Shown: piece by piece, positions 56,699 through 59,483 of the stretch
Layout of the letters: every line of letters begins with the position of its first letter
Position numbering within the stretch: the first letter of the stretch is position 1
From: Gammaproteobacteria bacterium
GTDB taxonomy: Bacteria; Pseudomonadota; Gammaproteobacteria; Eutrophobiales; Eutrophobiaceae
Length of the DNA: 64,000 nucleotides
Reading direction: 5' to 3'
Assembly (NCBI GenBank): GCA_965221695.1
Contig: OZ244905.1
Span: 384,001 to 448,000 of the forward strand
Made by a program: the position numbers and the translations under genes
Notes under the pieces: model-generated
The model's input: the letters and a program-made list of their open reading frames with translations, nothing else
What the model was told of the DNA's origin: nothing
The model's database searches: none

Positions 56699-57005
56699 AG
56701 TAAGCCATAACTAATTGTTTAGTAGGTTCTTTTATAAGCTATTGGTTCTTAATACCGCCATATATACCGACAACGTTATAAGTAGGATTTGAGCCTTAAC
56801 CAAATTTTTTGATCCGAGTCCTTTTGCTCAGATAAAAGGGTGTAAAGAATGTGAAGCCCGCCCGAACAGCCCCATAGATGGGAGCTAAAAGCCAGAAATT
56901 CTCAAATAACGTTTAGCTAGAGACTATACGTTTCAGGTCAGATGCAAATTTAACGAGCTTAGAGTTTGAACCGCCCCGGGAATCCCGGAGACTCGTTAGT
57001 TTGAG

Positions 57006-57905
57006 TCATGCGGCTATGCATGACCGGTTAATCTCATCATAGTACATCTGTTCATATTCAGCCGGCGGCACATTGCCGAGCGGCGCCAGCAAACGACGAT
57101 GATTGAACCAATCCACCCATTCCAAGGTGGCATATTCCACATCATCGAGTGTCTTCCATGGCCCCCGTGCCCGGATTACTTCCGTCTTATACAAGCCGAT
57201 GATCGTCTCCGCCAACGCATTGTCATAGGAATCCCCCACACTGCCCACAGAGGCCTCAATCCCGGCCGCCGCCAAGCGCTCGGTATAGCGGATCGACAGA
57301 TACTGACTGCCGTGGTCACTGTGATGAACCAACCCCTTGGCGCCGTGCCGTGACCACAACGCCTGCTCCAATGCGTCCAGCGCCAGGTCGGCGCCCAAGG
57401 AACGGCTGACCCGCCAGCCCACGATGCGCCGAGCATACACATCCACCACAAACGCCGCATAGGCAAAGCCCGACCAGGTCGCCACATACGTGATGTCCGC
57501 CACCCATAACCGGTTCGGCCTGTTGGCGGTAAACTGCCGGTTCACCCGGTCAGCCGGCTGCGGCAACGACGCATCACATACCGTCGTCCAGCGCTTTGCG
57601 CCCCGCCTCACACCCTGTATCTCAAGCTGCCTCATCAATCGCTCCACCGTGCAACGGGCCACCGCCTGGCCTTCCCGTTTGAGTTGCCGCCAGACCTTCC
57701 TGGCGCCGTATACCCGGTAATTCTCATCCCAGACACGCCGTATCGCCTCACATAACGCCTGGTCACGCCGCACCCGCGCCGGCAACCGCCCAGGGTCCGC
57801 TGCCCGAGCCTTGTGCTCGTAGTAGGTCGACGGGGCGACCGGCAACTGCTTGCAGATCGGCTCGACCCCAAGGGCCTCCCGGTGTTGGTCGATAAAGGCT
57901 ACCAT
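57006..57905 (-). CDS. IS3 transposase OrfB (DDE)
   Basis: [16 protein letters not shown] and DNALAE motifs; joined to orfA by a probable -1 frameshift at TTTTTTC. Confidence 0.92.
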
Positions 57906-57913
57906 CTCGCCAG

Positions 57914-58225
57914 TTAGCGGTCGAGCTCCGCCTGGGCGAAAAAAGCCGATGCCTTGCGCAGAATCTCATTGGCGCGCTTGAGTTCCCGATTCTCGCGTTC
58001 CAAGGCCCGCATGCGGTCACGCTCGACGCTGGTCAGGCCGGCGCGTTCGCCCTGGTCAACCTCTGCGCGTCTCACCCAGTTACGCAATGTTTCCGCTGTG
58101 CAGCCAATCTTATCGGCGATGGAAGTCAGCGCCGCCCACTGTGAGCGATAGGTCTCCTGATGCTCTAGGACAAGGCGCACGGCCCGTTCCCGGATCTCCG
58201 GGGGATAGCGTTTGTGTTTGTTCAT
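57914..58225 (-). CDS. IS3 transposase OrfA
   Basis: [31 protein letters not shown] zipper. Confidence 0.92.
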
Positions 58226-58889
58226 TGCTCCATCCTCTCAAGAAATGGAGCCTCCGGCAAATCCGGGGCGGTTCAGTTTACACTTTCAATATCAGTTACT
58301 AATTCCTCATATTGCCCATATTTCTGTTGTAATTCTTGGGGAGTGATACCAGTTTTGTCTTGCTCGTCATACCACGCCCTGAATTTTGCTTGCCATTCTG
58401 TCAGGTGGGGACGAAGTCCATCGTTCAAAACATTTAAGGCGACGTCTGTCAGATGCTCAATGCTTCCTTTATCTACACCATGCAGTTTCTCTACAGGAAT
58501 GTCTCTTATCAGCTCTCGAACAACTCCAAATAGTGTGTACCAAGAGTCGTACACCTGAACTATTACATCTTTTTCACGCTCAAATGGTAGTGCTGCTTTG
58601 CGAGTCACCAGCTCAGTCCAAATTTGATGGGCTATCAGTTTTTCTTGATAATTTGCGGTGATCTCAACAGTGCCTGTATTGAATGGCATATTTATGGTAA
58701 TGGTACCGGCTTGACGATTTCGCACTTTCCGAAAAAAAATCCACCAAACTATGCCGATAACGATCAATATAATTGCCACTGCAACCAAGCTGATGGTGAT
58801 ATTTAAGTCCAGGCCATCAATATTTATTGCAAGTAAATTAATGTCTAGCAAGTAGGGTAAATTTTTACCAGACTCTATCCCTTTAGCGT

Positions 58890-59483
58890 TCAATGAGTTA
58901 CTCCACAAACATCACACTTACGATTATAACTCCACATATCTCCAGGATTAGAAATCAAATTTGATCTAGTCGCTCTGGAAACGAATGCATCCTCAATCCA
59001 AGATCTGAGCTCCTGAGCGCTAGATGGGTATTTATAGCAACGCGCATAACAGCCACTGTTCGTATCATGCCAGTTAAGAGCCAAGCGCTCAGGTATATAT
59101 GCTCTACCGTAAGTGCTTGGCAACCCGATACCTATTAATCCGTGTGGCAATTGGCCGCCTAAACCGCCTCGTTGTAAAGATGCCTTAATTTCCCAGTCCA
59201 CATATCTCCTGCTATGGGTGCAAGTTCCTATCAAAACTATCATCACCGTAGAGTGGCCAAAATGCCGACTTCGAATAGCCTGCATGACGTAATTAGGGTT
59301 AGTGCTATTGATAATATCAGTTCCATAGCTCTGATAGGAATTAAGCATCACCGGAGTAAAGACATGCCTGAAGTCGTTGACGAAGTTGTCGACTTCAATC
59401 TGATCACCGTGGTAGTAAGAAATAAAGCAATTGCGCTTTGTTATCTGAAGGCCAGACAAACCGCTGTTGAGTAGTCCAGCCAC
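58890..59483 (-). CDS. ThsB-like TIR-domain protein (DUF1863/MTH538 type)
   Basis: CFISYYH, STVMIVLIG..T..RRYVDWEIKAS (catalytic Glu), PERL..N; GTG start after GGAG. Confidence 0.85.
   Translation of the reverse strand: MAGLLNSGLSGLQITKRNCFISYYHGDQIEVDNFVNDFRHVFTPVMLNSYQSYGTDIINSTNPNYVMQAIRSRHFGHSTVMIVLIGTCTHSRRYVDWEIKASLQRGGLGGQLPHGLIGIGLPSTYGRAYIPERLALNWHDTNSGCYARCYKYPSSAQELRSWIEDAFVSRATRSNLISNPGDMWSYNRKCDVCGVTH

Follow-up and report, generated by a model that had tools for sequence, protein, structure and literature searches.

A ThsB-type TIR gene beside a single-pass membrane protein of a widespread unnamed family: a candidate Thoeris-like module interrupted by an IS3-type element

A pair of abutting genes in a 64,000-nucleotide stretch of a Gammaproteobacteria bacterium genome (contig OZ244905.1, positions 384,001 to 448,000; hereafter the window) raises the question of whether a TIR protein can form a Thoeris-like anti-phage system with a membrane protein that has none of the domains of known Thoeris effectors. 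The genes are referred to here as gene 1, which encodes the TIR protein, and gene 2, which encodes the membrane protein, and their coordinates, together with those of the surrounding features, are collected in Table 1. Our answer, which we hold to be fairly probable, is that the pair is a horizontally acquired Thoeris-like abortive-infection module, of which the copy in the window has been cut by an insertion sequence (IS).

Gene 1 was confirmed as a ThsB-type TIR with an intact catalytic glutamate, in agreement with the initial annotation of the window. Its product carries the motifs CFISYYH, SRRYVDWEIK (containing the catalytic Glu102) and, at the C-terminus, CDVCGVTH, and residues 24-123 matched the Pfam family ThsB_TIR (PF08937) with an E-value of 1.5e-15 and 57.9 bits (cut-off 21.2). 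Among the PADLOC models it matched ThsB1 (E 2.7e-9) and PDC-M50B (E 1.7e-8), and a profile combining gene 1 with the 24 partner TIRs closest to it matched the solved ThsB chains 6lhy (1.1e-6) and 9b7d (1.2e-6). For the AlphaFold2 (AF2) model of the protein (predicted local distance difference test, pLDDT, 86.3; predicted template modeling score, pTM, 0.83), the best Foldseek matches were EcThsB (8wcf, 2.7e-5), a Bacillus cereus TIR (8fz9, 2.9e-5) and ThsB (6lhy). Consistent with this assignment, D100, W101 and E102 were invariant in the closest TIR subfamily (E102 in 25 of 25), and among 60 TIRs that directly adjoin gene 2 homologues both Glu102 and F24 were kept in all 60 and W101 in 55. The initial annotation had also pointed to CDVCGVTH as an unusual CxxC..H tail that might serve as a Zn-binding sensor. 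The tail is present in gene 1, where it was modeled with pLDDT values of 87-94, and a C-x2-[CH]-x3-H arrangement occurs in 14 of the 25 members of the closest subfamily, but as a trait of the system it was not borne out, given that C194 was found in 25, C/H197 in 13 and H201 in 13 of the 60 adjacent TIRs, with the second ligand and the histidine kept in 13. The tail is a subfamily trait only and not a feature of the system.

Gene 2, whose longest start makes it overlap the gene 1 stop codon (58890-58892) by 19 nt, contains the motifs IWTELVTRK and DSWY and the stretch LNDGLRPHLTEWQAKFRAWY. It is laid out as a variable N-terminus, one membrane helix (approximately residues 41-59) and a conserved cytoplasmic helical domain, and the description of one N-terminal transmembrane helix followed by a helical-looking domain in the initial annotation was therefore upheld. 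A single hydrophobic 19-mer (Kyte-Doolittle 3.07) lies before the conserved domain of gene 2, and such a 19-mer precedes that domain in 79 of 80 family members. The 15 residues that follow the 19-mer hold on average 4.08 lysines and arginines in the family members, versus 0.75 in the 15 that precede it. Under the positive-inside rule, this excess places the conserved domain in the cytoplasm (N-out/C-in). For modeling and for residue numbering we used P0002, an intact homologue of 225 amino acids that is 62-66% identical to gene 2. Its AF2 model (pLDDT 86.4) has a poorly defined N-terminus, a membrane helix at residues 39-61, two short strands and a bundle of helices (85-100, 114-133, 142-179, 188-193 and 198-224). 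The invariant columns of the family alignment, in P0002 numbering, are W95, R101, K102, W121, R129, R164, W170, R175 and W177, and from the sequence these arginine, lysine and tryptophan residues would be fitting for the binding pocket of a phosphorylated nucleotide.

Gene 2 matched no Pfam, NCBIfam or PADLOC family, the sole Pfam entry at an E-value of 1 or below being FeoB_associated (0.39), and the earlier statement that it lacks the known Thoeris effector domains was thereby supported. When 82 family members were scanned singly, no assigning Pfam family was among the best 25 of the 76 families listed, and within that same scope there was no Pfam match to SIR2-SLOG, Macro, caspase-like, DUF2270, SLATT or CMP hydrolase-TPR domains; in PADLOC, the best match of the 82 was to HEC-07 (4 members, E 0.0012). 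Eight longer family members (256-337 amino acids) were searched for fusions and had no Pfam domain in their extensions. An identity with Nmad5 was considered and rejected, one of the 82 members having matched that family at an E-value of 0.021 and the hhalign comparison with a true Nmad5 protein having given a probability of 0.12%.

The family to which gene 2 belongs is large. A word-indexed search returned 526 proteins, the names among the matches listed being without exception 'hypothetical protein', and an exhaustive search returned 907 clusters at 50% identity, 232 of them at an E-value of 1e-30 or better. A search of 185,579 species, each represented by a single genome, located homologues in 257 loci. 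The best 80 of these loci are spread over Gamma-, Alpha- and Deltaproteobacteria, Acidobacteriota, Bacillota, Bacteroidota, Planctomycetota, Actinomycetota, Verrucomicrobiota, Nitrospirota, Spirochaetes, several candidate-phyla bacteria and one archaeal bin. A phage origin of the family was rejected on the grounds that there were no matches in 50,697 phage records and only four loci in 2.9 million viral contigs.

Linkage of the gene 2 family to TIR genes was counted in these best 80 of the 257 loci, with direct adjacency defined as a gap of no more than 150 bp on the same strand and the wider neighborhood as the 5 kb around the homologue. A gene 1-like tblastn match was present in 65 of the 80 loci, on the same strand in every case. 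A locally iterated TIR hidden Markov model (HMM) identified a TIR open reading frame (ORF) in 72 loci, directly adjacent to the gene 2 homologue in 61; L019, L024 and L073 gained TIR_2 genes from Pfam, and two further loci have weak TIR fragments, L009 by a sub-threshold Pfam match and L004 by a tblastn match, at the edge of the contig, to the C-terminal part of a TIR. Across the HMM, Pfam and tblastn searches, a TIR gene lies within 5 kb of the gene 2 homologue in 75-77 of the 80 loci. Of the three loci without one, two (L013 and L067) are cut by a contig end and offer hardly any upstream sequence; the third is L010. Of the 40 ORFs recognized by iteration alone, 32 were tested with Pfam and all 32 were confirmed as ThsB_TIR or TIR_2, the others being four already tested, one from a duplicate locus and three short fragments. 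An absence of linkage, which the initial annotation had named as grounds for giving up its proposal, is thus the opposite of what these loci contain. A reverse test covered 400 other genomes of the phylum and recovered three gene 1-like TIRs; immediately downstream of each of the two strong ones lies a divergent relative of gene 2.

The arrangement of the TIR genes around gene 2 was also informative. Two or three TIR genes (ORFs of at least 120 amino acids) surround one gene 2 in 28 of the 80 loci, and on the plasmid NZ_CP133672.1 of Aureispira sp. CCB-E (L093, 298-5459) the homologue is preceded by five tandem genes, one encoding a deoxyribosyltransferase domain and four encoding TIRs. The partner TIRs include ThsB_TIR and TIR_2 proteins, DUF1883-TIR fusions and proteins of approximately 400 amino acids with a C-terminal TIR. 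Mean pairwise identity was 39.9% for gene 2 versus 30.3% for the partner TIR, and gene 2 identity exceeded TIR identity in 77.7% of 1,770 locus pairs (Spearman correlation between the two, 0.11). The greater conservation of gene 2 fits an arrangement in which variable sensors feed one conserved effector. As separate observations, the DUF1883-TIR fusions come from Clostridia-type bins, where each is encoded by a second TIR gene on the downstream side of the gene 2 homologue (L039:5527-6300 and L079:2905-3702), and the Aureispira locus sits beside an IS4 transposase and cas6/cas1.

From the computed TIR identity, catalytic motif, membrane topology and phylum-wide linkage we infer a course of events for the Thoeris-like module that we favor. 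The ThsB-type TIR would sense phage infection and, via its conserved glutamate, would convert NAD+ to a small ADP-ribose-derived signal. This signal would bind the cytoplasmic helical bundle of gene 2, which is conserved, basic and aromatic, and the single-pass N-out/C-in protein may then oligomerize and damage the membrane, so that the infected cell would be stopped. An analogous mechanism is proposed for ThsF, ThsG and ThsH in the accessible text of a December 2025 preprint (10.64898/2025.12.03.692087). In several loci the module is found among defense genes: the S and R genes of a type I restriction system flank it in L022, BrxC and PsyrT flank it in L050, and in other loci its neighbors include PD-Lambda-1, AriAB, bSEFIR, restriction genes of types II and IIG and a number of PADLOC candidates.

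A number of observations weigh against a Thoeris-like role for the pair. The excess of defense genes around the module is modest and, with a single small control, statistically not strong. In the test, which took the two nearest other ORFs of at least 150 amino acids and a PADLOC E-value of 1e-5 or better, 26 of 115 neighbors had a match (23%) versus 4 of 39 control ORFs from the window outside the island (10%); the 115 were drawn from 155 listed, leaving out one duplicate locus and L061 onward, and one of the four control matches was the PDC-S01-like ATPase that flanks the island (Table 1). In a Heliobacteriaceae bin (L010:1095-5633) an nSTAND1 NTPase-WD40 protein of 1,296 amino acids is encoded directly upstream of the homologue instead of a TIR, and the gene 2-type effector may also serve STAND-type sensors. 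Foldseek of the gene 1 model gave, after ThsB, the nucleotide N-glycosidases MilB (4.5e-4) and DNPH1. Lastly, in 16 of the 80 loci the TIR-gene 2 pair lies inside a cellular cluster of 5-hydroxymethyldeoxyuridine (5-hmdU) type, unlike a plain Thoeris operon.

These clusters (in L002, L003, L005, L014, L031, L037, L041, L053, L058, L061, L066, L068, L071, L075, L076 and L080, with L037:443-4444 and L014:1635-5645 as examples) contain a 5-hmdU DNA kinase (HMUDK_hel) in 14 loci, a thymidylate-synthase-like gene in 11 and Nmad2 in 15, sometimes with Nmad1, MazG/MazG_C, NUDIX, and dNMP or thymidylate kinases. Their typical order is kinase, synthase, short ThsB_TIR, Nmad2 and gene 2, with Nmad2 often standing between the TIR and gene 2. 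The Nmad names reportedly come from a comparative-genomics paper of 2013. Gene sets of this sort occur in phages in connection with thymidine hypermodification, as described in the accessible parts of PMC5889632 and PMC8989533. A literature search found no paper linking 5-hmdU kinase, TIR and Nmad, and Nmad2 alone gave unrelated papers; the link to these clusters is likewise absent from the searched text of the Thoeris preprint (10.64898/2025.12.03.692087).

The clusters bear directly on whether the pair might serve nucleotide or DNA-base modification, with gene 1 as a TIR-like N-glycosidase or base-exchange enzyme of the DNPH1/MilB/deoxyribosyltransferase type and gene 2 as its membrane partner. 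Besides the clusters themselves and the position of Nmad2 in them, the Foldseek matches of gene 1 to the CMP N-glycosidase MilB and to DNPH1 (including its 5hmdUMP complex) and weak Nuc_deoxyrib_tr matches in two partner TIRs speak for such a function. We nevertheless consider it very unlikely, because 64 of the 80 loci, this window included, are without 5-hmdU-type genes, because viruses, in which thymidine hypermodification is known to occur, almost lack the family, and because gene 1 has its best matches, in structure as in sequence, among ThsB proteins; the embedding of the module in restriction and BREX operons shows, moreover, that it nests in other modification-based systems too. A different arrangement would reverse the roles of the two proteins, making gene 2 a membrane sensor or regulator (of envelope perturbation or DNA injection, for example) and the TIR an NAD+-depleting effector. 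A membrane site would suit a sensor, gene 2 has no recognizable killing domain, and the accessible text of the preprint (10.64898/2025.12.03.692087) warns that the TIR in unverified operons may be an NAD-depleting effector. This arrangement appears rather doubtful to us, given that the two or three TIRs per gene 2 in 28 of 80 loci, and the five genes of TIR type on the Aureispira plasmid, have the look of diversified sensors and not of redundant effectors, that gene 2 varies less than its partner, the reverse of what is usual for a sensor, and that the TIRs fall in the ThsB family, in which the members studied so far produce signals according to the accessible parts of the papers on them.

It is also conceivable that the system is of a kind already described, with gene 2 a very remote, membrane-anchored relative of DUF6650 (ThsG) and the pair a divergent type VI Thoeris responding to 2' cyclic ADP-ribose (2'cADPR). 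As the accessible text of the preprint describes it, the type VI effector is likewise small and of unknown fold, and some ThsG proteins have N-terminal membrane helices (10.64898/2025.12.03.692087). DUF6650 was the nearest named family to gene 2 by protein-language-model features: for residues 62-225 the nearest named clusters scored 0.80 and 0.79 (174 and 167 of 256 shared features) and the ten best named matches were all of that family, with the whole protein scoring more weakly (0.76). By eye, the top hhalign alignment places GIqWnP..A..I..LEdkR opposite g.vEI.PN..IAhkIWTELVTRK. Language-model scores below 0.9, however, count only as leads in the calibration of the tool itself, and PF20355, the Pfam family of DUF6650, had no match to the window protein at an E-value of 1 or below, nor anywhere in this genome, and was not among the best 25 of the 76 families listed for the 82 family members. 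The hhalign profile-profile probability was 0.09% with 82 versus 31 sequences and 0.19-0.22% with an alignment of 223 sequences. A type VI identity for the pair is accordingly unlikely in our judgment.

With the Thoeris-like module as the preferred reading, its place among known systems can be considered. In its accessible text, the preprint 10.64898/2025.12.03.692087 verifies eleven effector types, ThsA (SIR2-SLOG), ThsC (Macro and membrane), ThsD, ThsE (caspase-like), ThsF (DUF2270), ThsG (DUF6650), ThsH (SLATT), ThsI (CMP hydrolase-TPR), ThsJ, ThsK (ion channel) and ThsL (hydrolase), and gives 29 putative effector types, which include unnamed membrane and DUF proteins; in our literature search the names ThsF, ThsG, ThsJ and ThsK were found in this one preprint only. 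Type II Thoeris (ThsB and ThsC), as far as the accessible sources describe it, resembles the present pair in that one effector, set in the membrane and carrying a cytoplasmic domain, has a ThsB-type TIR beside it and frequently several, but gene 2 has no Macro domain and consists of one membrane helix and a helical bundle. Types V (ThsF/DUF2270, with three membrane helices) and VII (ThsH/SLATT) are in the same accessible sources also TIR-driven membrane effectors, for which signal binding in basic inter-protomer pockets followed by membrane breach is proposed (10.64898/2025.12.03.692087). They differ from gene 2, which has no DUF2270 or SLATT match, in helix number and in domain. The PADLOC system PDC-M50 is similar in that gene 1 matches its B component (E 1.7e-8) and dissimilar in that neither gene 2 nor any of the 82 family members matches an A component; since no PADLOC model fits the gene 2 family, the A component of PDC-M50 is not this family. 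Also counted among the closest known systems are alpha-helical pore-forming toxins of the ClyA type (ClyA, PaxB, MakA/B/E and Hbl-B). An E. coli survey (PMC11350192) describes, in its accessible part, a two-gene TIR system with a membrane partner, and two short gene 2 motifs were not found in three of its supplement files. Type III Thoeris is mentioned in the accessible part of 10.1101/2024.10.24.620036 only as an operon architecture.

The initial annotation had seen in the pair a TIR signaling system with a new membrane effector. The comparative genomics agree with the first part, in the linkage of the two families and in their Thoeris-like layout; the newness of the effector is uncertain. 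Given the abundance of the gene 2 family, the chances are about even that it is among the 29 putative types, a comparison that draws on the text descriptions in the accessible part of the preprint only.

In the window itself, gene 2 is broken by an insertion (Table 1). Elements of the IS3 family are characterized by two consecutive ORFs (with helix-turn-helix, HTH, and DDE rve domains), terminal inverted repeats and a 3-bp target duplication, and the element in gene 2 has all of these. Its first bases create a TGA stop codon (58273-58275) that closes the 211-residue ORF of gene 2, and the remainder of the gene is found on the far side of the element, where the minus strand of 56913-56966 translates to NSKLVKFASDLKRIVSS followed by a stop codon. 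This detached piece fits the family C-terminal consensus VNxxLxxYAxELKKIV, and the last 16 codons separated in this way (56913-56963) correspond to the C-terminal half of the final helix. The initial annotation had given the two genes the span 56913-59483, which starts at the stop codon of the detached piece (56913-56915) and ends at the in-frame GTG of gene 1; the genes do abut within it, but gene 2 is interrupted and the span includes the IS. Because the IS cuts gene 2, the local module is very probably crippled or dead, and in its present state probably not functional. The single-contig 3.54-Mb genome holds further copies of the element, two full (100% and 99% identity) and two partial, and with near-identical copies elsewhere in the genome the insertion is likely to be recent. 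In four public sequencing runs no contig joins across 56967-58275 as an IS-free allele would, and the same arrangement was seen. The runs listed as containing the stretch included no RNA data set. A solo copy of the outer end of the IS faces the pair from upstream of gene 1. This 18-nt tip has two matches in the window, a number that none of 100 shuffles reached, and it indicates that a second IS copy, of which this is the remnant, was once there. The gene pair (58276-59564) is thereby bracketed by two IS tips, which points to IS-mediated deletion or rearrangement.

The setting of the pair agrees with the initial annotation, which had described two co-oriented, abutting, AT-rich genes in a tRNA-anchored island. 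The G+C content is 0.39-0.45 over 58500-60499 versus 0.56-0.62 in the glycolate-oxidase-like genes at 54000-56499, and the tRNA-Leu(taa) gene has an exact 19-nt repeat of its 3' end on the other side of the pair, by which an island of 3.5 kb is bounded; chance matches to this repeat occurred in none of 100 shuffles. The island has no integrase. The gene 2 family was found in this genome alone among 61 relatives, and in none of 22 of the same genus. A frameshifted gene remnant in the island had no Pfam match, and no tblastx relative in the 80 related loci. Just outside the island is the AAA_14 and DUF4143 ATPase already mentioned as a control match, and this PDC-S01-like family also adjoins the TIR-gene 2 module in L049. 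A DNA methyltransferase gene lies farther away in the window. In one run (X2), a low-depth contig joins 56698 to 60209, inside the tRNA, with 17 other letters between and a side of 24; this joint may represent an island-free site in a relative, another organism or an unrelated tRNA context, and is too weak for use.

Table 1. Positions in the window of the gene pair, the insertion sequence, the island borders and neighboring features.
Feature	Position	Strand	Basis and remarks
Gene 1, TIR protein, 201 amino acids	58890-59495	minus	ORF; TTG start at 59495, in-frame alternative GTG at 59483
Gene 2, 5' part, codons 1-211	58276-58908	minus	ORF 58273-58908, 211 amino acids; ends at IS junction
Gene 2, detached 3' piece	56913-56966	minus	Duplicated AAC codon, 16 codons SKLVKFASDLKRIVSS, TAA stop
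IS3-type insertion sequence, 1,309 bp	56967-58275	minus	ORFs, inverted repeats, 3-bp duplication
IS orfA	57914-58225	minus	HTH_Tnp_1, 4.7e-12
IS orfB	57006-57905	minus	rve, 1e-25; HTH_21
IS imperfect terminal inverted repeats, 39 nt	56967-57005, 58237-58275
3-bp target duplication AAC	58276-58278, 56964-56966		At both IS junctions
Solo 18-nt copy of IS outer end	59565-59582	plus	Exact; 69 bp upstream of gene 1 start, facing the pair
Frameshifted gene remnant, ~170 codons	59580-60033	plus	ORFs, three-frame reading; between solo IS end and tRNA
tRNA-Leu(taa), island anchor	60169-60255	minus	ARAGORN
19-nt direct repeat of tRNA 3' end, far island border	56675-56693, partner 60168-60186	minus	Exact match
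AAA_14 and DUF4143 ATPase, just outside island	60364-61518	minus	PADLOC single-gene candidate PDC-S01, 6.4e-82
Type II/orphan DNA methyltransferase	44512-45693	minus	PADLOC MTase_II, 1.1e-157; 11 kb from island

A bolder reading, which we regard as speculative and rather doubtful, is that gene 2 is a very widespread, undescribed, nucleotide-gated single-pass effector for ordinary ThsB sensors, which in approximately one fifth of the loci is also wired to a cellular 5-hmdU-type cluster. If so, some of the TIR-like enzymes in those clusters would make or read a signal that is not derived from NAD; alternatively, a bacterial DNA-hypermodification system would be using a TIR-effector pair as its suicide arm.

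TIR-based signaling is common to immunity in bacteria, plants and animals, and every new class of effector has until now brought new signal chemistry. The local copy represents an effector gene put out of action by an IS of which identical copies are still present at other places in the chromosome, and the family to which that gene belongs is large, taxonomically broad and unnamed, with members small enough for structural and liposome work. Should it prove to be one of the putative types of the 2025 survey, the present analysis adds its anatomy, namely the membrane topology, the conserved basic and aromatic residues and the multi-TIR layout; should it not be among them, the gene 2 family adds a type.

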